The translations under genes were made by a program, and so were the position numbers. The notes under the pieces are model-generated. The model was not told the DNA's origin. It worked only from the letters and a program-made list of their open reading frames with translations, and searched no databases. DNA of 53,747 nucleotides, taken from the NCBI GenBank assembly GCA_032718475.1, contig JAUCBJ010006357.1:1-53747 (forward strand), in the 5' to 3' direction. The stretch's first letter is position 1; the number at the start of each line of letters is the position of its first letter. This stretch comes from Nemertoderma westbladi (lineage: Eukaryota; Animalia; Xenacoelomorpha). Shown piece after piece: positions 4,406 to 36,884 of the stretch.

Positions 4406-4479
4406 ACGTGCTTTCCCATTTTTTCCACTTCTGAACAAAACCATTTACATTACATCATTAAAAACAATTATCATCAAAC

Positions 4480-5785
4480 TGTTATAGAGATAGTGAGAGA
4501 ATTAGAGAGACATTGAGAGAGTTAAAGATACACTTAGTGAGTTACAGAGACTGTATGCGATGATACAATTACTGAGTTAGAGAGACTGTAAGAGATGAGA
4601 CAATTCCTGAGTTACATAGACAGTTACAAAGTTACAACGACAGTTACAGAGTTACAGAGACAGTTAGAGAGCTATATAAACTGTGAGAATGTTACAGAGA
4701 CAGTTACTGAGTTTGAGAGACAGTGGAGACATTGAGAGAGTTACAGAAACAGTTAATGAGATACAGAGACTGTGAGAGAGTTTCAGAGACAGTTACAGAG
4801 TTACAGGGACTTTGGGAGAGTTAGAGAGACAGTTACTGAGTTACAGAGACTGTAAGAGAGTTACAGAGGTAAAGATACAGTGGGGATATTGAGCGAGTTA
4901 CAGAGGCAATTACAGAGTTAGAGAGAGTAAGTGGGGATATTGAGAGAGTTACAGAGACAGTTACTGAGTTTGAGAGACAGTGGAGACATTGAGAGAGTTG
5001 CAGAGAATGTGAGAGAGTTACAGAGACAGTTACAGAGTTAGAGAGACAGTGGAGACAGTGAGAGAGTTACAGAGACAGTTACTGAGTTTGAGAGACAGTG
5101 GAGACATTGGGAGAGTTGCAGAAACAGTTTATGAGATACAGAGACTGTGAGAGAGTTTCAGAGACAGTTACAGAGTTACAGAGACTTTGGAAGAGTTAGA
5201 GAGACAGTTACTGATTTACAGTGACTGTAAGAGAGTTACAGAGGTAGAGAGACAGTGGGGATATTGAGAGAGTTATAGAAACAGTTAATTAGGTACATAG
5301 ACTGTGAGAGAGTTTCAGAGACAGTTACAGAGTTACATAGACTTTGGGAGAGTTAGAGAGACAGTTACTGAGTTACAGAGACTGTAAGAGAGTTACAGAG
5401 GTAGAGAGACAGTGGGGATATTGAGAGAGTTACAGAGGCAGTTACAGAGTTAGAGAGACAGTGGGGATATTGAGAGAGTTACAGAGACAATTACAGAGTT
5501 AAAGAGACAGTGGAGACATTGGGAGAGTTACAGAAACAGTTAATGAGATACAGAGACTGTGAGAGAGTTTCAGAGACAGTTACAGAGTTACAGAGACTTT
5601 GGCAGAGTTAGAGAGACAGTTACTGAGTTACAGAGACTATGACAGAGTTACAGAGACAGTTACTGTGTTACAGAGACTGTGAGAGAGTTACAGATATAGT
5701 TAATGAGTTACAGAGACTGTGAGAGAGTTACAGAGATAGTTAATGAGTTACAGAGACTGTGGGAGAGTTACATAGACTGTTACTA
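4480..5785. repeat. Degenerate purine-rich minisatellite (GAGTTACAGAGACAGT-type motifs)
   Basis: Dozens of imperfect GAGAGTTACAGAGACAGTTA / GTGGAGACATTGAGAGAG motifs with strong strand asymmetry. Confidence 0.9.
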
Positions 5786-6660
5786 TCACTTTTATATATT
5801 ATAGCAAAGATTCGTTTAAGTATTGTCACAAAATTTAAATTCAATTATTTACGCTTATTTTTTTAATAATAATATAGGTGATTATGTAACTAGATTAATT
5901 CAAATTAATGTGGTTAAGTGAAAAAAACTGAATATTTTATAAACAGTTCTGAGATGGAACAGACGGTGTTTTTAATTGACATTAGATGTGTATCAGCTAT
6001 TCAGGCTGTAATTGCAGTGAGGAATACCGTCTCAACTGCAGGGCTGCTTGGAGGAAAGAAGCCACTCAAATATATCTCATTAATATGTCACTGATAACGA
6101 ATAAATGTCACAATTCCACTCGCTTTTATCTTTAGCAAATAAAATGGCCCTGTCGATTGTAGATGCTTGTTGATAAAACCTTTTCGTAAGTATCTCTATT
6201 ATATTTAACCAATTAATTGCCAAAGTTGTTTTTTTTACATAAAAATACATTTTGCGAGATAATTAATTTCATGACTGCAAAGATTATTGAAAAGCAAGCT
6301 CGAAATCGCTCAAAGGTCCGCGTCTACTAACGCATGAACTGTCTCCCCCTTGAATGGTTTACTACAAACCTATCTTACTACCAATAAATTCATCTGAAAG
6401 GGGGGATTGAATTCGGTACCTAGAGATTCCAAGTTCATCGCTCTACCAACTTCGCCACTGCACAAAATTACTAAAACCTAACTGGTAATTTACAACAACA
6501 CCAATAACACCAACAACAACTGAGTGAATACTAGAGGTCTTGCTACGCGGACCTAAAAACCGACCAAGTTAAATTTTTGAAATACCATTATTACCTGTAC
6601 AATTTCAATCTCAATTGTCTTGATCTTGAAGTGCATATATTAATGTTAATATTAAAGATT

Positions 6661-14749: not shown

Positions 14750-16878
14750 AATGCGACTACAACTAAGAATCTTGATAATCTCATATAATTGCAAGAATGT
14801 ACATAGTCCGTCGGGGCTAAATGATGTAGGAGATTATTGTCTTCCGGGGTTTGCAACATCCTTTTATTGCAAGAGACGTGGCTTCCGAAACAAGAGCTAG
14901 GATTTATAAATGAAATTCATAATGATTTTATTGGCAGAGGGGTATCACCCGTTGACCTTTCTGCCGGTCCACTAAGAGGCCGTCCCTATGGGGGGCTTGC
15001 AGTGTTGTGGAACAACTCGCTAGCTTCTATAGTGGAACCGGTTTCTTTGGTACAGATGAGTGCAGAATCATGGGTTTAAAGGTAAATTTAAAGAATAACG
15101 AGGAAATGCTTATTGTAAATGTATATATGCCTTTTCAATGTACAGATAATGAACCTGAATTTACTGAGTGCTTGGGTAAATTGCAATATATACTGGAAAC
15201 TCAATCATATTTGTGTTTATCAGTTGTAGGAGATTTTAACTCTAAGCCTGGAACTCAATTTTATAGTGATTTATTTGATTGGTGTGTTTCTAATTCATTA
15301 GTTATTGCTGATACACTTACATTATCTAGCGACACTTATACATTTGTAAGTGAAGCTCATTCTACGACATCGTGGCTTGATCACATTGTGTGTACAGGTC
15401 CGTTATTGAAGATGTCAAAGGAAATTAAGGTGCTTTTTTATTACTCTATATATGACCACCTACCGGTATTTTGGGAAGTTGATGTGGAAGTTGTAACCAA
15501 TGTACAAACTTCAGGTTATAATGATGATTGTTATGTTCTAATAACTGTGATAAAAGCAGTAAATTTGAGTGGTGTCATACCACTCAGGATAATATATTTT
15601 TATATGCGGATACGTGCAGTAAGATGTTGGGTGATCTCGATATCAATAGTGATTTTATTAATTGTAGGGATGTAAACTGTGGTATGCACCGTACCCAGAT
15701 AAGTAACCTATATAGTAAACTTACTGATATTCTTATTAACTCTGATGAGGCACATATTAAGAAATTGCCTAATAAGTGTGATAAAAAATGGTCTCACATT
15801 CCAGGGTGGAATGATTTTGTGTGAGATAAGCATGATGATGCCAGTAGTTAAGTCATGGCGTGAGTGTGGCTCGCCACGTCAAGGTCAGTAGATTACATGC
15901 GCTCCAGAGCTGCTTTTAAGAGGGCTGTTAGACATTGCAAAAAAAGATGAACAGAAAATACGTAATGATAAAATGGCAGATGCATTGTTGTCAGATAAGA
16001 GTTCTAAGGATTTTTGGGACCAGGCTAGGACATGTAATGCAATACATGTACATTAGGTGGGCGGGGCATAAATCTGGTAAATTTTTGGTTACAAATGGTA
16101 TGAAACAGGGTGGGGTCCTTTCCCCGATTCTATTCAATGTATATATGGACGGTTTAAGTAGGGCACTTAATGAGACTGGGGTAGGGTGTCTAATAGGGGG
16201 TACAAGGGTGAATCATTTAGGATATGCCGCAACTTGTGTCTTTTATCGAATAGTTTATTTGGGTTACAACGATTAATTAACGTAGCTGAACGATTTGCAT
16301 TTTTTAATTCTATATTATTTAATATGAAGAAAACAAAATGTTTATATTTCGTTCCCAGGAGCTCAGGTCATTGTATTTTTGGTGATGTATATCTATATGG
16401 TATTAAAATTGATGTAGTTGAAAAATTCAATTATTTAGGGCATATAATTCATAGCAGTGCAGATGATGATTTTGACATAAAAAGGCAAACACAGTGCCTG
16501 TACGCCAGAGGTAATCTATTAGCTAGGAAATTTGGTGCTTGTAGTAATAAAGTAAAGCTAACACTGTTTAGAGCATTCTGTTCAACAGTTTATTGTAATG
16601 CTTTATGGGCTAAACGAAATTATTCAGGAATTGTGCATAATAAACTCAGAGTAGCGTATAACAATTGTTTTAGGTTACTTTTTCATATTCCGAGAGTAAC
16701 AAACGGTGAACCAACTAGTATTAGCAGCGCATTCGGGCAATTTAATGTTAAAATGATGATGCATATTAGATACATGTCAATTGTAATTCTATTTAAAAGA
16801 GTTGATAAGACTGATAACAAAATATTGAGTACAATTACTAATGTATGCCGTCTGGACAGTACATCCAGAATAAGGTAA
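14750..16878 (+). pseudogene. LINE ORF2 remnant (APE endonuclease + reverse transcriptase, internally deleted)
   Basis: LLQETWL, GRPYGGLAVLW, NVYMP, VGDFN, SWLDHI, DHLP, IPGWN, KQGGVLSPILFNVYMD. The YADD motif is frameshifted (GYAA) and the N-terminal RT motifs are missing at ~16035. Confidence 0.9.
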
Positions 16879-19375: not shown

Positions 19376-19955
19376 TGTGACGGGATCCGAGAATCCCGAT
19401 TTATCCGGTTTTTGGTTATCTCGTCTACGCGTCCCTGCCGTGTGTGTGAAAAGAGTTCTGATGTTATTGAGTTGCTCTCTGTTGTTGGGTCGTATGCAGA
19501 GATATATATATAAGATAAAGTATAAGCACAGTGATTGTAATAACTGAATGGATGAGTACCGGTAGGATGGTTGAATGATGGAGGCAGTGGACGGTGACAA
19601 GAGTTACCGTTCCGCCCTAACTGAACTGACTAACTGAGTGAATAAATGACACAGTAACTGACAATATATTGCACTGGTTGGCCGTATTACATTACTCAGT
19701 GGATGCCTGCCCCCCATTGGCTAATAACTCACTTCTCGCCTCCCATCTCTCTGGGAGTGTTTCCCCCCCCCCCCCCGCTACTGTTATTCTCTCTCTCTTG
19801 GAGGTATAACCTCTGACCCCCTTTGTGTGTTCCTTTGGGGTTTGTCGTCCCCGCTTATTGGGGTGAAACGAGGTTGATTGGTAAGCAACCTCGTGCTCCC
19901 AATATTGCTTAAAGCTAACTTTGTGGGGTGGCTAGCGGAATTGAATTCGCTAACA
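19376..19955 (-). repeat. 3' LTR of the BEL/Pao element
   Basis: 580 bp, TGTGACGGG...GCTAACA on the plus strand. Direct repeat of 29853-30426, with about 10 substitutions counted by eye and a C-run length difference. Confidence 0.95.
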
Positions 19956-19963
19956 CCCCCCCC
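19956..19963 (-). promoter_or_regulatory. Polypurine tract
   Basis: G run on the minus strand immediately before the 3' LTR start TGTTAG. Confidence 0.7.
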
Positions 19964-20662: not shown

Positions 20663-23230
20663 CTAGTTCGTTCCACCTGACTTTGGGAACCATCTCAACT
20701 CTTTCCCTCTGTCGTCCTCCTCCCTTGGTCGTTTCCTGGCCGCTGCCGCTCCTTTGACTGTATCTCCCTTCAGACCCCTGACCCTCGCCGTCACCTCTCT
20801 GCTAATCCCGGTCGTCGACTCCTTGGGTGCTGGTGTTATTAGCTCCCGGTATCGCTTCGCGGGTGGCCCCTCCGAGTGGCCCTGTTGTCTCCCCCTGGTG
20901 GCGTCCCATAGGATCACTTTCATCGCCCGCGGCACATGCTCCGCCAAGAAATCTCTGAACTCCCCTCTGTTCTGTGGCGTCCACCTGTCCAAATACCTCT
21001 GCGTATTTATCACCCCGCCATACAACGCCGCCGTCGCTACCTCCTGGTATGTAAACGGAAGTCTCCGTTTGATAACCTCCAAGTGGGCCTCCTGGTTGGT
21101 ATTAAAGAAGCCCCACCGGAACTCCTGGGCCTTCATACGTTGCCGAGTCATGGCCCCGACGTCGGCCCACTCCTCGAAGATTCTAAACTTATCTTCGTCG
21201 TCCATCCAGTCGCACTGGCGTCCGTAGTGCCCCCGGAAACTGCACATCGAACACCGGTTGTGCAACCGTGGACACGCCCCTATCCTGTGGCTCGACTCGC
21301 GGCAGTAGAGACAACTAGTCCCTTTCTGGAACCGGTACAAACAGCTCCTTTCCTGGTGGGTCTGTCTCCCACAGTAATCACAGCCGAGCACCAATGTATC
21401 CCGCCCCACGTCTTCTTTCGTCCCAAGCGATCTCCACGGTCTGTGGAGTCGCTGGTAAGCGAACTTCTGGACGTTAGCGTCCCTGTCCACGTCGATCTCC
21501 TCGCCCCTCCCGGGCATCGTCTCCCCGAATACTACCCGTGGCGCCGTTCCCGGTTGCTCGCCCAACCTGGTGGTGCGCCCCGCGAAATCCATCGCCGGCT
21601 CCTCATGCACCCAGGCCCACTTGCCGGGTCTATCCCAGAAGGCTCTCGCCCCACTGGCTGTCACCACCCTCCCGCCAACCCAGTCCGTGTCCGAGTGGCC
21701 GATCCTCACGATGGGCGGCATCTCTCCGAACTCGTTGTCATCCTCATCCTCCTCTGGGAGTGGCTCCAACTCCGGTATCCCGGTGGACCCGCTGTGTCCC
21801 TTTCCACCTTGGCTCTCGCCCGTAACTTTCCATCCTTCCAGCTCCCCTAACCTCCTTAGCGGCTGATCGCCCTCGGCGCCCGCTGGTATGGGCGTCGTCT
21901 GCAATCCCGATGTCGACTGTTTTGGTGATCCCACCGTCCACCCTAATTCTCGCCCTAGAGACTCCCCCGAACTCCCTGATGATGTCCAACGAAGTTCGTC
22001 TAAGGCCGCCTGTTCCTCGAAGCCGTAGCTCTGTGCTCTAGCTTCTTCCTCCCTTTCATCTGCCTCTCTCCTTTCCTGTCTAGCGATTTCTTCCAATCGC
22101 TTCGCTTCTCGTCTATCCGCCTCTAGCTGCTCCCATCTCTGATATGGCGTATCTACCTCCCCGTCTACTAGATGTCGGCAGTTATAGTACACCGACTCGC
22201 CCTTCAGCCCCGGGTGGTCTACCAGACCCTCGAAAGCCGTCTTGAAGGCTCTTCTGTAGCTTAGGGGTTATCCCGATAATAGGAATGCCGTTGGTTCCCT
22301 CTCGATAACCACGGTCATGAATAGGTTAAGCAAACCCATCATTATCCAGTCCTCCTGTAGGATATATCGCTTCTGATATACCTTTATCGCTACTCTCCGG
22401 AATTGATACACCTCTTGTTTCCCTGGCCTCGCTCCCCACTTCAGCGAGTTCGCCAACTCCGCTCTGTACTCCTCTCTGAACTTACTCCAGTCCATAGGTT
22501 TGTGACACACGAGCCCCATTAGCTGGCCCATCACCACCGCTCCACAATGGCCTGAGTTCTCCACTAGTCCCAGCCCGTCTGGTGCTGTCATAGCCATGTC
22601 GACCGTCTGCGTATCCAGAAGGTTGGGGGTGTCCGGGCCAATGATTCTCTCCGCATCGTCACGAATCGCCGATCCCACTTTCGTCGTCGACTTCTCTCTT
22701 ACTAGGGTTTGCACCGCCTTCGGCAACCGGTTCAACTTCGGCCCGTCCTTCTTTCCATACGTCCCTAGGTCGAATAGGAATATATCCCCATTTGGCGCGG
22801 CCAAATGTAGGAGTATGGTTCTGGCTGACCCCGCCGATCCTCTCCTCGAACCCTCCTCGTCTTCCACGGTCCCATCATCGTCTAGGACCATGTATCCTCC
22901 TCGGCTGACGGACTCTACGAACCTCTTCCAATCCTTTCTCGGTGGCTCTCTTGCGTACTTCGGAATCCCGAACTTCGCTTCGTCTCCTTTCACCACGTAG
23001 TGGAAATGCTCGAAGATCGCATTGTCCAGCGACGGCGTCCCGTAGGTCCCAACCAGCCGCTGTTCGTGCACCTCCCTGAAATGGTCTTGTAGCGCTCGTG
23101 CTTTGTGGCCTCTCTCTAACCGCTCGTAGTATCCCCTCGTCTTCTCTTCCGGATGCCTCTCGGTGAAATCCACCAGTATCGCCTTTCCTCCTAACTCCGC
23201 CTTTCCCTTTTGGACAAGCTTCCCTGCCAT
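20663..23230 (-). CDS. Extra ORF of the BEL element: DEDDy/RNase D-like 3'-5' exonuclease + coiled coil + 3 CCHC zinc knuckles (one in-frame stop)
   Basis: ORFs 22268-23230 and 20663-22192 share a frame, separated by one TAA and an open linker (PLSYRRAFKTAFEGLVDHPGLKGESV). Exonuclease-like motifs: MVLDDDG, LLHLAAPNGDIFLFDL, LPKAVQTLV, KVGSAIRDD, LLDTQ, QKRYILQED. Knuckles: CDYCGRQTHQERSC, CLYCRESSHRIGAC, CSMCSFRGHYGRQC. Confidence 0.75.
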
Positions 23231-23699
23231 CTCGAACTCTCCTCAATCGCTCACCTGTAAGGTGGTGCCTTGCCAAGGCGCAGTACAGATGAGTGATAAA
23301 GTTAGGATGGTCTGTACAGTTCGACAATGGCCTATTTCTTACTTAACTTCGAGTTTTCGCCTAATTTTCCCTACTTAATTTCTAAAACTGCTAAATTGTA
23401 CCCTAAATTGTAATTTTGTCCGTTACTTTAATTATGTTCCAGAATATTTTTCCTACTGTTACCATAATTTGTCTAATTTTCTAATTCTATTTTATTTTTA
23501 ATATTTAATCAAACCCTGTTACTGTGCTACTACTTCTGCCAGTGGATTATTCTACTTTATAATCCACATTCTGGCCTACTCTGTGGGCTTGTGCAGTAAA
23601 ACAGTATACGTCGCGTGGCCTACACGATTTATCCAGCTGTACTCACATGCCCCCCTCTCGCTACTCACTACTACACTACTAACTAATATCTATATCATA

Positions 23700-24235
23700 C
23701 ATACCCTTCTACCACTAACTTCTAACTAACTTCTACTAACCGGTACTACGTACCCTCTTACTAACTTCTAACTAACTCCTACTAGCCGGTACTACATACC
23801 CTCTTACTAACCTCTAACTAACTTCCACTAACCGGTACTACGTACCCTCTTACTAACCTCTAACTAACTCTCAACTAACGGTACTACGTACCCTCTTACT
23901 AACCTCTAACTCTCTCTCAACTAACGGTACTATGTACCCTCTTACTAACCTCTAACTAACTCTCAACTAACGGTACTACATACCCTCTTACTAACCTCTA
24001 ACTCTCTCTCAACTAACGGTACTACGTACCCTCTTACTAACCTCTAACTAACTCTCAACTAACGGTACTACATACCCTCTTACTAACCTCTAACTAACTA
24101 ACGGTACTACATACCCTCTTACTACTAACTCTTACTAACTAACGGTACTACGTACCCTCTTACTACTAACTCTTACTAACTAACTAGCGGTACTACGTAC
24201 CCTCTTACTACTAACTCTTACTATCTGCCTACTTA
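23700..24235. repeat. ~46-bp tandem repeat inside the BEL element, between the pol remnant and the extra ORF
   Basis: About 11 copies of CTAACGGTACTACGTACCCTCTTACTAACCTCTAACTAACTCTCAA and shortened variants. Confidence 0.9.
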
Positions 24236-24364
24236 CACTCACTACGTACGTACTATTACTTTCTCTTCATTTTTTTATATTTTTATTTTTGTGTGTGGGA
24301 AGGGCGTCTCGCCGTCAATCCCACCCCCCTCAGTCCAAAACTTGGACGACTAAACTCTACTCGT

Positions 24365-27300
24365 CTAAGGTGCTCCCTCTAGTAGGCAGTTCTTCCACTG
24401 CCCCCGTGTAGGACCTCTGATTCTTCGCCCCGCTCTCCTTGTCAATTCCAACTCTCTTGGAATTGACCTTCCCTTTTCTCCTGTCCTTAAATTTGGAAAG
24501 TGCTGCCTATTCTCTATGTCTCTGATCTCCTCGTGGTCGTCCCTTGGCGGCAAAGTGCCACCCTTCAACTTGTCGTTCGGCGGTATAATGCCGCCCCTGT
24601 TTTCATCCATAATCTTAGATGCCACCTCTGCTGGCCTCCCCCTTAATATGTGCGCTGGCATTAAAGGCCTTGATGACCCCCATTCGTCCTTCGGTATACA
24701 CGATGTCTGCATATGTAATGCCCCCTCGCACTGTGTCAGTCCCGTGTGCATGTGTAACACACCTCCTTCTACTTTCCTGGCTTCTTTGTTACCTTTACTC
24801 TTGGGCTTCTCTGCCCCTGGTCTAATCATCTCACATCTTCTCCCTTTCCATCTTGTCTTCGTACTCGGCCTCTCCCTCTTCGGTATGCCTCTCAACCGGA
24901 CCGGTGTCTCTTCCGGACGTTCCTCCGGACACTCCTCCGGACGGTTGTCCTCCGGACATCTCGCCGTCCACACCTCTCCTGTCCCAATACTGATACTTGC
25001 TGGGAACATCCTTGTTCCATCCCATTGTCTCTAAATCTTCTGCGTTCAAGCCATTCTCCTCCGCCCACTCTCTTGGTGTTGCTTCCACTTCTAGCTGTCT
25101 CCCCCTATCGCCCGTCTCTGGCCTCTCCTCTACCTCCTCAACAGTCCCTGGCACCATGCACCCTGAAGTCTCGGTTACACTGAATGGTATATTGGTTTTG
25201 ATTGGGCCGGTTAGTGTCCACCTGAATGGTGTTAAAATCGCCACCGGGTCATACTGCCTGTCTTCGCCGAAGACCGTTTGCATTCTCTCGTGGGCCGTCG
25301 GGTAGTCCATTCCTACTATAATGGATACCTTCCTAACGTCCACCTCTGGGATTGAGAAGTCGATACTGTCCAGGAATTTGTATTGTTCGACCTCGATGTT
25401 AGTTGGTCGCCTGGCATTGATATTTATCGACTCTATCACCTGGATGGGGTTGATGCTCGCCCCATAGTCGCATCCTGGTGCTATTGCTGCTATCATGCAC
25501 CATCCGGTCCTCTTCTCCAGGACCTCATCTTTGCTGGAGATGGTTGTTACCGCCATTCTACTTGGCCTCATTCTCAATCCTATCTCTTTGGCCACCCAAT
25601 TCTCGACTAATGTGAAGGCTGCTCCACTGTCGACCAGCATCAGTGTGGTCACTGATCGATTGCCTTCCCCGATCACTCGCACTGGTACCACCCCAAGCAG
25701 TACCGTTCCTCTCTTCTTCGCCACTACGGTGCTTGTTGCCATCGTCTGACCTTTACTTTGACCGAACTTAATTGGCGTTTCCTTGCATTGGTTAGCACTA
25801 TGTCCACTCATCACACATCATGAACAGATTTCATTTCTTCTTGAGAAGATTCCATTTCATCTTCCCTGGGTAGTGCTTGCCAGTACCTGCAGTTCATGGT
25901 CTGATGAAGTGCATTTGTATGTAATTGGCATTTGCTCTTTGGGTTGTAGCTGTCCTTATACAATATCCTCGCTATAGACTGGGTCTGTTATTAATTCGGC
26001 TTCATAGTTCAAGAAGCTCGACATTTCTTCTAAACCCAGTTCCGCACCCTTCTTATCTCGAGTGGTGAAAGCGATTTTTCTCCACTTATTACGCATCCAG
26101 ATTGGCAGTGCCTGTGCTATCGTGGTAATGTTGTTAGACGCGTTGAGTTCGTATGGTGCGTCTAGCGTCTTTAGTACGATTAGCGCTTTCTCAACCTTGT
26201 TCGCAAACGTCTTTATGCTAACGGGATTATCCTGTAGGCCACCCGATGTTATACCTCTCAGGGTCTGCAGGATGATCTTGGCCGGGTGCCCGTACTCCCT
26301 GTCTAATGCCCGCCATGCTGTCGTGAAGCCACCCTCGATGCCCTGGTATTGCCTCACGATATCATATGCTGGGCCTCCTGTATATACTTGTAGATATTTT
26401 AGGCACTCCGCCTGCGTCAAGTTCTTTGTTAGTATTTCGTTACTATACATGCGCCGAAACTGTAGGTATTCTTCCTGCCTACTTCCATCGAATTTAAACA
26501 GTTCCACAGGTGGTAACTCGATCCTGGTTTTTAAGGCATCGATTAATGTAGCCATTCCCATCGCTTGCGCTTCCAATGGGTTCGATGGATGCTGTATAGG
26601 TTCTCCTGTTGGGTGCAGTCTGTTCGTCCTGTCTGACGCTTTTCTTTGACTTGGATATATCATTCGGGGTAGCGGCCCCCTCCATATTTCAGTGTCGCAT
26701 GATCTATTCTCATCCAAGGGGTTCGATGTTCTTATCCCTATTGGGGTATATTGTTGATATTGTGATGGGGGAATGTCACCCTGCCCCCCCCCCCCCCCCC
26801 CCCACCGGTATGTTTGGTACTGGGGTTGATATACGCAATAATTATCCCCTTCCCTGGGTATATGTTATGTCTTTGCATGCTGTAGTCATACTGCTGTGCT
26901 GGTACCGGTATAGGCCTATCTACTTCTGGCCTACCTGCCGGTATGTACTCCGCGACTTCCGGGTTTAATCCCGTTGTCCGCGCTATCCTATCACCTACAT
27001 TATCTCTCCCAGCATGGCCTATGGTATGTACAGTAAGGCCTACAGTATGTCCTGCAGTCTGTATGTGTCGCTCGGGATCAAAGTTTAATCTTCTCGAATA
27101 ATCCTCCCCGCGGCTACCGTACTCTCGATTGCTAGGTAGATCCCGTCGGGAAGTTTCTCTTCGACCCCCTCTACTGCTCTCGTCCTCGTACCAGTACATC
27201 CCGTACCCCCCTCTCGACGCGTAGTACGCCTCGTCTGGTCGCGTTTCTCCAGGATGACGGCAATCTCCCGAAGTTCGACCCCACTGACTCTCCGTTTCCA

Positions 27301-29698
27301 TCTCTACTACCGACGGCTCGCTATCCGTCTTCGCTCTCCTGTCATTCGCGACGACACTTCTTCTACTCTCATCCCTTCTTCTCTCTGCAGTGCAGTATCC
27401 CCGTTCGTGAGATCTCTCGTCGACCTCCCAGTTAAACTCCACTGTTCTTCTTCCTTCTTCTGATCGGGCTCGACGCTTCGTCGCCCGCCCTCTCGCGGTT
27501 TCAACCTGTCTCTCTCCGCTCGATCGCACGCCGCTGGGGATACTCGCAATCCCCCTACTATTCTCCATCGCCGGGTGCTGCGGTTCACCTAATTCGCCCC
27601 GCGCATTGTCCGCCGACGCCTTTGCCCCCCCCTCTCGCCGCTAATCTCTCGTTGTGGGGCTCCTATAGCCACCTATCACTCCACCGCCTCTTACTTCACT
27701 TCTACACCCCTCTCTAGTCGACACACTAACCCTACTGCGGCTGGGTCTATTCACCCCCGCCTCTCCCTCTACTACTGTGTGGCCTACCAGGCCCTCCACT
27801 TCCTGCCTACTAACTACGTGGCCTACCAGGCCCTCATTGGGTTGACTCAACCCCGCCACTTCCTGCCTACTGACTACGCGGCCTACCAGGCCTTTATTGG
27901 GTTGGCTCAACCCCGCCACTTCCTGCCTATTGACTACGTGGCCTACCAGGCCCTCATTTGTCGGGCTATCCACATCCGCCACGTTCATATTAATAGCACC
28001 ATTACCAGTATTATCTGTTAAATCAATTAAATCTTCAAATCAATTAAATTATTTTGCACGCCTAAATTAGAAACAGGATTATTTTGTTCATTCGAAATAA
28101 GATTATTTGAATTATTTTGCGTAATTATATTATTTGAATTATTTTGTAAATTCAGATTTAGATTATTTGAATTATTTTGCGTAATTATATTATTTGAATT
28201 ATTTTGCGTAATTATATTATTTGAATTATTCCCTACGTTTATATTAGAATGGGTCGGATTTAAATTACTACCATCGGACAAAATGTTATCTCCTGCAACG
28301 AAAGTTTGATTAGGGTTATCCACTACGGTACTATTAATATTAACGTCCTCTACTGTATTATTATTATTACCCCCCCCCCCCCCCCCCCCCCCCGCCCGCA
28401 CGGTCACACCAGTCCTGGGTCTGTCGTGCGGTCCCTGTAAGTGGGGCATTAATAAACGTTTCCCTAACTCCTGGCTCCTCGTAAATACTCGAGCCAGCCT
28501 CGCTCTCTGACAGCCCCATCTGCGCCATTTCCAGTCTGCGCCTCTGTTTGGCTTGATATTGCATAACCCCCCTCAACCGGGCGTGCATATTATCTCGCAC
28601 ACGCTTCCCCATTGCCTCTCTCTCCCAGTCCTCCCGCATACTCTGCTCGGCCAATTCCGCCTCTCTCGCAACTCTCTCCAGTCGTCTCGCCTCGCGCTCT
28701 TTTTGCTCACTCTGCTCTCTCGCCTCACGCTCTTCGCGCCTATTCTGCTCTCTCGACTCACGCTCTTCACGCCTATTCTGCTCTCTCGCCTCACTCGCCG
28801 CCTCGCGCTCTTCTTGCTCCTTCCTTTCTATCCTTCCTATTTCCTCGCACTCCTTAAAACTTCTCGCGACCTTTTTGGCTCTCTCTCTGTTCTCTCTAGC
28901 CAGTTCTTTCTCCTTCTCTATTAACGCACTCTCTTCCTCTAACTGTCTCTCTAATTCTCTCTGGTCTAGCGCCGCCAGATCGAGTTGGCACGCCAGATCT
29001 ATTTCCATCACCCGTCTTACTTTCGCGGAAGATGTAGCAGACTTATCGGTCGCGATGGACTCCCATCGCCTTCCCGTCCTACTAACTTTCCCCCGCCTCC
29101 CGGAATTTTCTCCAACCGACGAGACCGAATCCTCGGGGTTAACCTCGGATTCGCCCTCCTGCGGTCCCCTCCAACCCACTAATTTTATTCCCCAGGCATC
29201 GACTAAGTATGGCCCTATGTACACTACACCAGGCTCCATACCCCTACATTCCCATAGTTCAAACAGTTCGCTGGCAACCCCTCTCGCTCTCTCATCGGCT
29301 AGTTCTCCATGCCCAAAGCGCACTAAGTAATCAAAATGTTTGTTCGACTCACCTAGCCACTTCTCTAGCTTCATCTGGTCTATCTTGGCCCCTCCTTTGG
29401 CTTCTTTTAGTTGCTTCCAGGTCGCGGCGTAGGCTCGTCGGAGCCGGTTGCTGACCCCGACGTCCTCGTCGCCGACGTCTCCTCTATCCCTCCGTGTCCG
29501 GCGTCGTACCGGCGGCCCCACCGTCGCCGTACCGGTGGGCCGTCCGTCGCCCTCGGCCTGTGGCTGGCCGGTGACATCGGCACGTCGACCGCCGCTGTGT
29601 GTCGACTCATCTCTCCCCTCTCTCGACTCGCTCTCTCGTTGTAGACGGCCCCCCTCGGTTTGGATTGCCGGATCGCCTATGGTCGACGAATCCGGCAT
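24365..29698 (-). pseudogene. BEL/Pao gag-protease and integrase C-terminal remnant; RT, RNase H and integrase core absent
   Basis: Gag N-terminus with PEDSVS and a coiled coil (28367-29698); Pao capsid-like LPPVELFKFDG...AWRALDREYG (25956-26717); frameshifted knuckles at ~25785-25935; protease LVDSGA...IVGMD...PVAILTPFRWTLTGP (24831-25814); integrase-tail-like PLMPAHILRGRP and KNCLLE (24365-24680). Several stops and frameshifts, two at long G runs. Confidence 0.85.
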
Positions 29699-29852
29699 CG
29701 TGGGTCGGTACCGTCGCGTCGCGGCCTAGCGGATCGTTACGTCACTGTCCGGGGTCTGCGGCGGTGTCGTCTCTCTTTCTCGACTCATCCTTTTCGCTCT
29801 TTAGTCGGTGGCTGGTAACTGTCAGTTAGTTCAGGCAATTGGCTCTTGTCAC

Positions 29853-30426
29853 TGTGACGGGATCCGAGAATCCCGATTTATCCGGTTTTTGGTTATCTCG
29901 TCTACGCGTCCCCGCCGTGTGTGTGAAAAGAGTTCTGATGTTATTGAGTTGCTCTCTGTTGTTGGGTCGTATGCATAGATATATATATAAGATAAAGTAT
30001 AAGCACAGTGATTGTAATAACTGAATGAATGAGTACCGGAAGGATGGTTGAATGATGGCGGCAGTGGTCGGTGACAAGAGTTACCGTTCCGCCCTAACTG
30101 AACTGACTAACTGAGTGAATAAATGACACAGTAACTGACAATATATTGCACTGGTTGGCCGTATTACATTACTCAGTGGATGCCTGCCCCCCATTGGCTA
30201 ATAACTCACTTCTCGCCTCCCATCTCTCTGGGAGTGTTTTCCCCCCCGCTACTGTTATTCTCTCTCTCTTGGAGGTATAACCTCTGACCCCCTTTGTGTT
30301 TTCCTTTGGGGTTTGTCGTCCCCGCTTATTGGGGTGACACGAGGTTGATTGGTAATCAACCTCGTGCTCCCAATATTGCTTAAAGCTAACTTTGTGGGGT
30401 GGCTAGCGGAATTGAATTCGCTAACA
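29853..30426 (-). repeat. 5' LTR of the BEL/Pao element
   Basis: 574-bp direct repeat of 19376-19955, upstream of gag on the minus strand. Confidence 0.95.
30095..30148 (-). promoter_or_regulatory. Putative LTR core promoter (TATA-like box and initiator-like motifs)
   Basis: Minus-strand CAATATATTG (30139-30148) about 30 nt upstream of clustered TCAGTT initiator-like motifs starting at 30114. Confidence 0.4.
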
Positions 30427-30487
30427 CATAATGTGCAAATTGATAATTTATTATATGATGTAATAGCTTGTATACTACATTTATCAT

Positions 30488-30835
30488 GTTCCAATGACGT
30501 AATCAAACTAAACGTTCCGCATACGGTCAATGAGCAAGCGCGCAAGGCCTTCTACTACAACGCAGCGCAAGTCTGGAACTCCCTACCCAGCGACATGAGA
30601 TTCTGCACTGGAGGTATTAACTATGACACCTTTAAAAACAAACTAAAAACTAGTCTCTTTTAGTATTTTTGTCCAGTTTGTTTAGTGTATTATTATTAAT
30701 TAAGTGACTGATGGAACAGGTATATAGGTACTGGTTGTTTTAATTAGGTTAGGTAGTTAGCTGCAGGCGCCGTGATAAGATCGCACTGATCCCTAAGGGC
30801 GCCTGCAATAACAAAAATAAATTTGTTTATTATTA
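30488..30835 (+). mobile_element. 3' end fragment of a CR1/L2-like LINE
   Basis: C-terminal KAFYYNAAQVWNSLP...TFKNKLKTSLF, a 3' UTR stem TGCAGGCGCC/GGCGCCTGCA (30762-30807), AATAAA and a (TAT)n tail. TSD TTATCAT at 30481-30487 / 30836-30842; removal restores the host frame (ILHLSSELYIKKPK). Confidence 0.8.
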
Positions 30836-32463
30836 TTATCATCCGAATTATATATTAAAAAGCCTAAATTGCAAAAAGGGGATGGCACCACTCATATTCC
30901 AGGGTGGAATGAATATGTGAAGGAGAAATATGAGGACTCAAGGCGTAAGTTTAAATTATGGAGGGCCTGTGGGTCACCCCGACAGGGGCTTATTCACGGT
31001 AATTACCTTCGGGCTAAAGCGTCCTTTAAGCATGCGTTAAGAACATGTAAAAATAATGAAGAAGGGGCACGTAGCGACCGAATGGCGCAATCATTGTTAC
31101 GTGGGGCCAAACCGAAAGAATTCTGGGATCAGGTTAAAAGAAAATGTGCCATCCCCGTCTCCACACCCCAGTAAGTATTGGAGATGCAATAGGCGCAAAA
31201 AATATTAGTGAAATGTGGAAGTCTCATTTTTCTAGCTTGTATAATTGTGTAAACGTTTATCTATACTTTTTACAGCTATACTAGTGCATGGTTATTTACC
31301 AAGTAAAATAATAGAATCCGCATTATTTCCAATTGTTAAGGATAAATTGGGTGATGTGACTAGTAAGGATAACTACAGGGGTATCGCTGTATCATCTGTA
31401 ATAGGTAAAGTTTTAGAGATTATTATTTTAAATAGATGCATTAATTTGTTAACTACTACTGATAACCAATTTGGTTTCAAACCTGGACTTGGGACTGAAA
31501 CCTGTGTTTTCGCATTAAAAGAGATCATTAATTACTACTTGTCCTTAAATACACCTGTTTATATATGCATGTAGGATTCTTCTAAGGCGTTCGATCGTGT
31601 AAATCATTTTGTGCTATTTAACAAACTATTAGATAGGGGTATTCCACCTTATATAGTGCGTATCTTAGTATTTTGGTATAGGGAACAGAATTTATTCATA
31701 TATTGGGCTGGCTATAAGTCATCAAATTTTAAGGTCACTAACGGTACCAAACAAGGTGGTGTGCTCAGTCCCATTTTATACAATGTGTACATGGATGACT
31801 TGAGTAAGCAATTTACGGATTCTGGTGTAGGCTGCTCAATGGGTGACACTAGAACAAACCATTTGGGATATGCTGATGAACTTTGTCTATTGTCGACATC
31901 TATTTTTGGTTTACAGTGTCTGATTGATATAGCTGACAAGTATGCAAATAACAATTCCGTGACCTTTAATTTGAAGAAATCTAAATGTTTATATTTTATA
32001 CCTAAGTCGAGTAGCGTTACTAAATATGCCAGTGTGTTTCTATATAATAAACCTATTGAAGTTGTTGAGCAGTTTACTTATTTAGGCCACTTGCTACATA
32101 GCAGTACGGACGATGACCCTGATATTAAAAGGCAAACTAGATCTCTTTATGCCAGGGGCAATCTATTAGTAAGAAAGTTCGGTTCTTGCAATATTATTGT
32201 AAAACGACTATTATTTCGTGCATTTTGCACGCCGATCTATTGTAATGCTCTGTGGTCTGGGAGAAACTTTTCAAATAGTGTGTACAATAAAATATGTGTA
32301 GCTTACGACAATTGTTTTAGAATGCTGTTTAATATACCTAGGGTAACAGATGGGGAAGCAACGAGTATGGCTCTCCATTTTGGAATACATAATTTGCCGT
32401 TATTTAGTCACTTACACTATGATTCGATTAACAGTTTAAGTAGGGGGGTAGGGAAAACCTCTA

Positions 32464-33687
32464 CTAGGATCGGCATGCTGCATTGCAGCTGCATTTTTAA
32501 GAATGCTGTGCCGGCTTGTCAACAAAATTGCACCGCCACAACTCCCTATCACCCATGACATTTGCTAGATCATCCGCATTTTCAAGGTCAGTGTCCTTTA
32601 AGATGCGTCTCAAGAAAGTCATGGGCTGTCCACCATGCTTATTCACTCCATGAGGCAGCCAAAGTACAAGATTATGCACTGGCTGGTCCTCACGGCGAAA
32701 GCAATGTCCTGCAAAGCGGAGGCGATTTTGTTCTAGTGTCAAGCTTGGGGGAACCAATGAGACACCTCCAATGTTATATAGTGTCTGGTTGGAGATGTGT
32801 GCATTGTACTTGACACAATGAACCCGGCGTAGCATTCTTGTGAATGTGCCATCCAAAGATTTGGTGTCCTCAGCAGTTAGAGCCCAGCATGGACTCCCGT
32901 AGAGGAGTACTGGAACTACTGCTGCTTTAAATAATCGGACCATAAGTTTCCGATTAATTCTCGGTGACTTCGAAATACTGGAAAGCCTATTCAAGGCTGC
33001 CCATGCCTTTCCCTTACGTATTCGAAGGTCCTCACCTGACTTCCGGATCCATGATCCCAGGTAACAGAAGTCGTCCACATGCTCAAGCATACCATCCTTT
33101 GAGCTTATGCTCATCCGATCAGAGACTTGCTGAGGACTTTCAAAGTTAACTGTCAAAATTTTGGTCTTTCTGGAGTTAATAAAAAGACCAACACTAGAAG
33201 CAGCATGTTCTAATGAGCTGATGAGCCGTTGGGCTCCCTCTAATGATTCTGAGAGTACTCCTAAGTCATTAGAAAAGTCTAGATCAGTTAGGTACTTGGC
33301 AGGATTTCCTCGACTTCTGGAGCCAGTAGGTGGAGTTATCATCACTCAATCATCATTATGATGATCTAAGGACATGCGTAGAACATAGTCAACCACAATA
33401 ATGAACAAGAATGGTGCACGTGTGTCTCCTTGGAGGACGCCCCATAACACTTCAAATGGTTCTGTGTCACCGTCAACAGTAGACACAAATGTTGTCGAAC
33501 CATCGCATACTGATCTGATTGCTGCAATAATTTCATCAGGAATCCCATATAATGAAAGTATGCTGAACATACGTGAGCGAGAGACTGAATCAAAGGCCTT
33601 GAAGAAGTCAACAAAGATAACAGCCAGATGCCTGTCTTTCTTTTTTGATAATTCTTCAATTATTTAATTAAATTTAATTTACATTAA
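32464..33687 (-). mobile_element. 5'-truncated RTE-clade LINE
   Basis: FVDFFKAFDS, GVLQGDTRAPFLFIIVVDYVLR, DLDFSNDL, FCYLGS, VLLYGS, RLRFAGH; short TAG tail; perfect 15-bp TSD TAGGGAAAACCTCTA at 32449-32463 / 33688-33702. Confidence 0.92.
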
Positions 33688-36330: not shown

Positions 36331-36332
36331 CG

Positions 36333-36884
36333 GAAAGGCATGGGCAGCCTTGAATAGGCTTTCCAGGATTTGGAAGTCACCGAGAATTAATCAGAAACTT
36401 AAGGTCCTGTTATTTAGAGCAGCAGTAGTTCCAGTACTCCTTTATGGGAATCCATGCTGGGCTCTAACTGCTGAGGACACCAAATCTCTGGACGGCACAT
36501 TCACAAGAATGCTACGCCGGGTTCATTGTGTCAAGTTCAATGCACACATCTCCAACCAGACACTATATAACATTGGAGGTGTCTCATTGGTTCCCCCAAG
36601 CTTGACACTAGAACAAAATCGCCTCTGCTTTGCAGGACATTGATTTCGCCGTGAGGACCAGCCAGTGCATAATCTTGTACTTTGGCAGCCTCATGGAGTG
36701 AATAAGCATGGTGGACAGCCCATGACTTTCTTGAGACGCATCCTAAAGGACACTGGCCTTGAAGATGCGGATGATCTAGCAAATGTCATGGGTGATAGGG
36801 AGTTGTGGCAGTGCAATTTTGTCGATAAGCCGGCACAGCATTCTTAAAAATGCAGCTGCAATGCAGCATGCCGATCCTAGTAGT
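36333..36884 (+). mobile_element. RTE LINE 3' fragment, near-identical to 32464-33012 in the opposite orientation
   Basis: GKAWAALNRLS...VDKPAQHS and the same 3' end GCATGCCGATCCTAGTAG. Confidence 0.9.

Follow-up and report, generated by a model that had tools for sequence, protein, structure and literature searches.

A candidate self-priming signature in a defective BEL/Pao-type LTR element of Nemertoderma westbladi

The window, by which we mean the whole 53,747-nt stretch of Nemertoderma westbladi DNA that was analysed, carries on its minus strand an LTR element whose features are collected in Table 1. Its two LTRs differ by 11 substitutions and one 6-G indel, and the stretch 30239–30069, which includes the leader, is identical in the 3′ LTR counterpart. 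Together, the LTRs and the TTATG duplication set the element boundary, so that the LTR end is fixed independently of the pairing described below. The gag reading frame is split over several frames from 29725 onward, and neither a six-frame Pfam scan nor tblastn with two full BEL/Pao polyproteins found RT, RNase H or integrase in the element, which is therefore non-autonomous. Neither AATAAA nor ATTAAA occurs anywhere in its LTR, and Rfam gave zero matches across 29500–30500. Within the LTR, contig cover is deepest by a wide margin over a near-palindromic 29-nt segment in U3 (30338–30366), which may be common to another abundant repeat.

Table 1. Features of the LTR element, in positions of the window
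Feature	Position	Strand	Details
Whole LTR element	30426–19376	−	11.05 kb
Target-site duplication TTATG	30427–30431	−	5 bp; second copy 19375–19371
5′ LTR	29853–30426	−	574 nt, TG...CA
CCAAT and TATA-like AATATA	30139–30197	−	CCAAT at 30197, AATATA at 30147; putative promoter, from motifs
Second helix, 5′ arm	30089–30114	−	imperfect; repeated TCAGTT initiator-like motifs; putative start site near 30112
Exact complement of PBS position, CTCTTGTCAC	30071–30080	−	predicted self-primer 3′ end at 30071
U5 hairpin	29858–29875	−	predicted, 7 bp; just before LTR end
PBS position, GTGACAAGAG	29843–29852	−	directly after LTR-terminal CA; without TGG
Second helix, 3′ arm	29821–29838	−	predicted pairing
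gag capsid-region ORF	25959–26864	−	DUF1759, BEL/Pao type, E 1.2e-10
Aspartic protease ORF	24834–25817	−	Asp_protease_2, E 1.2e-5
Tandem-type repeat	23714–24249		occupies expected place of RT, RNase H and integrase
Extra ORF region	20663–23242	−	predicted 3′–5′ exonuclease-like domain (PF01612-like), then Cys/His-rich part
Polypurine tract	19956–19963	−	run of 8 G, directly before 3′ LTR
3′ LTR	19376–19955	−	580 nt, TG...CA

Elsewhere in the window, an uninterrupted 2,486-aa ORF on the plus strand (43587–51047) has the URGCP and URGCP-like GTPase domains of a very large GTPase. A 552-nt inverted repeat (32461–33012 and 36332–36883, 96% complementary and 3.3 kb apart) shares part of its left arm with the end of an RVT_1 fragment (31575–32555). 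LINE-like remnants lie at 14956–16721, with an endonuclease domain at 14956–15672, and at 31724–32368, the two segments being 67% alike. A 42-bp satellite occupies positions 1–2900 and includes an inverted block (2660–2863); a separate repeat array with a 20-bp period follows at 4461–5824.

The element shares with the Belpaoviridae an LTR size within 0.2–1.2 kb, a DUF1759 Gag, a protease and a polypurine tract, whereas it has neither the RT, RNase H and integrase of their pol nor the 18-nt PBS for tRNA-Arg or tRNA-Gly by which the ICTV profile describes the family as tRNA-primed (PMC8742986). A search among longer proteins returned only two matches, both Littorina BEL/Pao polyproteins at 22–23% identity; a further protein search for close relatives returned eight, all to one short repetitive stretch, and others returned none. 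DNA-pattern scans of metagenome or viral contigs gave no match to the LTR family of the window element, and P0001 had none in viral contigs. The window Gag forms an unplaced long branch (4.87) in a Gag tree of 36 rows, which left out families without a recoverable Gag segment. The element is a defective, non-autonomous BEL/Pao-type derivative rather than a full member of the Belpaoviridae.

Within the extra ORF region, the exonuclease-like ORF and a downstream zinc-knuckle-like, Cys/His-rich ORF lie in one frame with a single stop between them. In the Atlas, residues 100–320 of the former score 0.93 and all of the 30 named matches are PF01612 clusters, and the ORF taken whole scores 0.86; Pfam shows no exonuclease match for it and PDB no sequence match. 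Its structure model has a pLDDT of 35.6, which makes a fold search uninformative, and protein searches found no relatives of either ORF. On the strength of the Atlas matches, an exonuclease identity is plausible.

The original prediction held that this element has no tRNA-type TGG after its 5′ LTR and that the PBS position is complementary to the element's own leader in the geometry of a primer. TGG is indeed absent from the first 150 nt beyond the 5′ LTR, and all four predicted pairing segments, belonging to a 10-mer and a 9-bp pair, lie where they had been placed; the lack of RT, RNase H and integrase had not been part of that prediction. The complement of the 10-mer has offset 0 and ends exactly at the LTR edge. 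When the LTR was shuffled 20,000 times by dinucleotides, 8 shuffles gave at least 10 nt of complement at offsets 0–3, and a complement of 10 is reached at just 2 of 9,855 other internal positions. The second predicted pair is also present, in a pairing longer than had been claimed: the full predicted duplex joins 30107–30071 with 29852–29821 through 29 pairs at −36.9 kcal/mol, against −21.6 ± 2.8 kcal/mol after shuffling, with none of 300 shuffles matching the real one. The initiator and TATA roles that had been attached to this second pair are suggested by motifs. By raw energy the duplex ranks second among 274 internal windows. That one internal window pairs better with the LTR, and that the element is degenerate, would be in keeping with a decayed element that has lost its true PBS by deletion and matches its LTR by chance; we consider this highly improbable given the shuffle counts, the exact edge geometry, the second helix and an ACA/GT signature (the slash marks the LTR end) that recurs across BEL/Pao families.

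Because TCAGTT occurs repeatedly, alternative registers are open to the second helix, which in the window exceeds shuffles with a z of −2.4. Folding 30120–29790 gave a z of −2.2, with 2 of 100 shuffles equally good: the 10-bp long-range helix is found in the centroid only, whereas the minimum-energy structure favours a local hairpin around the 10-mer. With four trial 5′ ends, the helix had pair probabilities of 0.59–0.98. In the Tf1/sushi group a U5-IR-like structure lies beside the primer duplex; a U5 hairpin is predicted in the window element, but the Tf1-like duplex between the after-primer sequence and U5 is no better than shuffles in the window (z +0.3). A spliced primer in the window LTR was also considered and rejected, as the best complement over all GT–AG pairs is 4 nt.

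DNA contigs of the same organism show the LTR family to be multi-copy and variable. The helix 2 variants listed, at 30090 (20 contigs in run X1 and 14 in run X2) and at 29838 (3 and 2 contigs), both convert G·U to Watson-Crick pairs. Among the 40/55 matches listed, no variant falls in 30069–30089 or 29844–29852, and one X1 contig alters 29843 without a partner change at 30080; the contigs cover one arm of the pairing at a time, never both. Five contigs diverge to other letters downstream of 29835–29850, so not every copy has this PBS and helix 2. Contig depth is about ten-fold higher over 30078–30113 than over 30006–30053, a difference to which we give no weight because summed contig depth is not copy number.

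The duplex might instead be a genuine structure of the RNA, or a relic passed down, which would regulate packaging, translation or dimerisation while another RNA primes, or would persist in a defective copy that primes no longer. Such a reading would accommodate a duplex that runs well beyond the 10-mer, the competing local hairpin, the difference between copies downstream of the PBS, and an element that is broken and without RT. It accounts less well for pairing that stops exactly at the LTR edge in both the window element and its relatives, where no other primer site is left. Moreover, LTRs that are only about 2% apart and an intact target duplication indicate that the lineage was reverse-transcribed fairly recently with its present leader, and we regard a structural or relic role as rather unlikely.

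Relatives were collected by searching metagenome contigs with a 71-residue RT stretch of P0001, which yielded 79 loci (the best 80 of 298 confirmed) in 44 families at 90% RT identity. In five families the LTR end could be fixed independently, by the divergence of the 3′ LTR into its flank. All five have ACA/GT at this end, none has TGG, and each has an 11–14-nt complement in its own LTR, contiguous in one family (L003) and across a GT–AG intron in the other four. Relatives with a normal TGG site, which would have spoken against the original prediction, are thus lacking among the five families with fixed ends. When all CA sites upstream of gag were compared, a complement of at least 11 nt was found at 19 of 128 ACA/GT sites and at 13 of 4,577 other CA sites (Fisher p 1e-22), and an LTR-end motif built from the five families picks out 26 sites in other families, of which 15 reach 10 nt.

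The compensatory changes that were to be sought across related families are seen in these distant ones, in different letters. Specifically, 21 sites carry 12 distinct 10-mers, and when the PBS of one family is set against the LTR of another, 10 nt are reached by 6 of the 376 pairs whose 10-mers differ versus 44 of 44 whose 10-mers are identical. By script, 27 of the 44 families are positive (10–14 nt), 26 of them only across a predicted LTR intron. These positives comprise a set of 24 families chosen from earlier matches, together with L033, L044 and L051; within the 24, the complement is spliced in 23 and contiguous in one, with a mode of 11 nt (16/24). Predicted GT–AG introns lie inside the LTRs of most of the families L003–L079 and are mostly 130–430 nt long, and it is at their junctions that the complement to the PBS is made whole. 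In 19 of the 24 relatives the primer end has a poly(A) signal 6–50 nt beyond it, helix 2 is better than shuffles in 6 of the 24, and the Tf1-like after-primer/U5 duplex beats shuffles in none of them.

The script did not find the other 17 of the 44 families positive. Five of them lack an end sequence, in L015 and L038 the downstream half alone is seen, L004 reaches 9 nt, and L063 fits by eye and fails the acceptor filter; the other eight include L042 and L056, whose putative ACA/TTTTGGT is possibly a tRNA-type site. Two contiguous 11-mers in L043 were dropped as chance, its LTR end likely lying upstream, and a single cross-family score of 10 for the window PBS proved to be an artefact of the LTR end of L072 itself. 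A further 10-mer after the PBS region, GTTACCAGCC, occurs both in the window (29810–29819) and in the L004/L037 family (near 2295–2305 in L037), and may be chance or a packaging motif.

The LTR end of the window element, CCGTCACA followed by GT, fits the end motif of the relatives and is the same as that of L073 over 10 nt; its complement is 10 nt long and contiguous, as against the mode of 11 in the relatives. Its Gag is 22–26% identical to theirs. As the relatives are distant and the window Gag is unplaced, the covariation backs the principle and not the window family directly, and it is by geometry and LTR-end motif, at the level of sequence, that the window element is tied to them. We consider the signature itself to be well supported as a real feature of these sequences.

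The relatives also bear on the alternative that an internal tRNA fragment primes the element, in the manner of copia lineages that use half-tRNAs. The PBS is presumably complementary over its first 6 nt to the anticodon loop of tRNA-Asp(GUC), which by the same assumption sets 6 contiguous nt against the 10 offered by the element's own LTR. Neither the window nor 60 of the 79 relative loci yielded a tRNA gene. The relatives vary at positions 3–11 with matching changes in their own LTRs, so that one tRNA cannot explain them, and among the tRNA types in the supplements of PMC13524379 no tRNA 3′ 12-mer contains the motifs. Although a passage of PMC6317226 documents half-tRNA priming for about 2% of plant elements, we judge it improbable here.

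We favour the reading that the element's own RNA, instead of a tRNA, primes the minus strand, to which we assign a probability of about 0.72. The idea of self-priming in a BEL/Pao-type element, as originally put forward, finds support in the distant families, whose internal regions start with GT and pair over 10–14 nt with their own LTRs. Our best reading, by analogy, is that priming would resemble that of Tf1, with RT supplied in trans. Transcription would start upstream of 30080, probably near 30112 to judge from the TCAGTT at 30114, which would give the putative ~40-nt leader of the original prediction, and the leader would fold onto 29852–29821. A 3′-OH would then be made at C30071, most likely through a Tf1-like cut by RNase H from the RT of a helper element; considered by itself, RNase H as the source of this end has roughly even odds. 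RT would extend the primer from the terminal A of the LTR, and the R sequence downstream of the cut would support strand transfer. Strand transfer following a 5′ cut needs a poly(A) signal soon after the primer end, as found in 19 of the 24 relatives. For the majority of relatives, splicing of the LTR intron would have to come first to create the primer end, the window element and L003 being of the intron-less form. Should each cycle copy the PBS anew from the primer, as we infer, a perfect match would be kept automatically, and this upkeep would explain why a perfect 10–14 nt stands beside an imperfect second helix.

Within self-priming, and as part of the probability given above, the primer end could also be created by 3′-to-5′ trimming to the duplex edge, carried out by the product of the exonuclease-like ORF or by a host nuclease with either the 3′ end of the genomic RNA itself or a short, trans-acting, polyadenylated LTR transcript as substrate. 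The nearby poly(A) signals of 19/24 relatives would suit such a route, as would the failure to find an adjacent duplex of the Tf1 type, a leader that, from the splicing of the relatives, probably reaches 5′ of the paired 10–14 nt (unlike the 11-nt primer of Tf1), and the Atlas score of the ORF. However, the window element's LTR is without a canonical poly(A) signal, Pfam returns no exonuclease match for the ORF, and tblastn matched it in none of the 79 relative loci; because many of these loci have the signature, the ORF is not required for it. DEDDy ORFs also occur in unrelated retroelements and ride as passengers in other LTR elements, according to passages of PMC5408684. The bdelloid elements Juno and Vesta likewise carry a 3′–5′ exonuclease-like ORF downstream of their replication genes (the DEDDy ORF3); they belong to other lineages, and the passages on ORF3 in that source state no link to priming. 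The connection between exonuclease and priming that the original prediction raised is left unsupported by these results, and we view the trimming route as unlikely.

We lean, from sequence comparison, towards a broader reading in which much of BEL/Pao may be self-primed and not tRNA-primed. In most cases the host spliceosome would join the primer 3′ end from two LTR exons and so license reverse transcription, and the window element would stand for a branch that lacks the intron and uses a long capped primer secured by two helices. If true, BEL/Pao would be the third LTR superfamily with self-priming, after the Tf1/sushi gypsy elements, where it has been shown, and the TAR copia elements, where it is predicted. 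Self-priming would yield exact, testable RNA ends and could explain why PBS-based annotation overlooks such elements, and the intron-spanning form of the relatives would link retrotransposon replication to splicing; the window copy, a defective and intron-less example, would be the least unusual form. We found no report of BEL/Pao self-priming in the literature searched, the coverage of which ends short of subscription papers and Repbase reports, where a prior remark is possible, and the BEL/Pao papers PMC554778, PMC3118150 and PMC6238403 gave no PBS or tRNA passage. The replication of Belpaoviridae is described as poorly understood in the ICTV profile (PMC8742986).

Outside the Tf1/sushi group, self-priming has also been predicted from sequence for the TAR lineage of Ty1/copia (Houba, Osr-1), plant copia elements for which the passages in PMC6317226 mention no intron-spanning primer; the same source lists both Tcn1 and TAR of plants as predicted self-primers. 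Tf1 and Tf2 of S. pombe, Tj1 of S. japonicus and the wider Tf1/sushi group with Tcn1 are Ty3/gypsy elements. They share with the window element the want of a tRNA PBS and a PBS of about 11 nt that complements their own 5′ LTR (passages of PMC7175516, PMC4600332 and PMC6317226), and by this measure the window element matches at 10 of 10 nt with offset 0. In Tf1 the RNA's initial 11 bases anneal to the PBS, with RNase H cleaving between bases 11 and 12, as a passage of PMC7175516 describes, and for Tj1 self-priming was proposed on complementarity alone (passage in PMC4600332). The primer of Tf1 is thus the first 11 nt of its RNA, whereas the paired segment of the window element probably sits some 30 nt from the transcript's start with a second helix upstream; cleavage has been shown for Tf1 and is a prediction for the window element. 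An after-primer/U5 duplex of the Tf1 type was detected neither in the window element nor in its relatives, and the complement in these relatives, unlike that of Tf1, mostly spans a predicted intron. The Gag of the window element is of BEL/Pao type and not of the Ty3/gypsy (chromovirus) type, so that the element is not a member of the Tf1/sushi group, although it may work alike.
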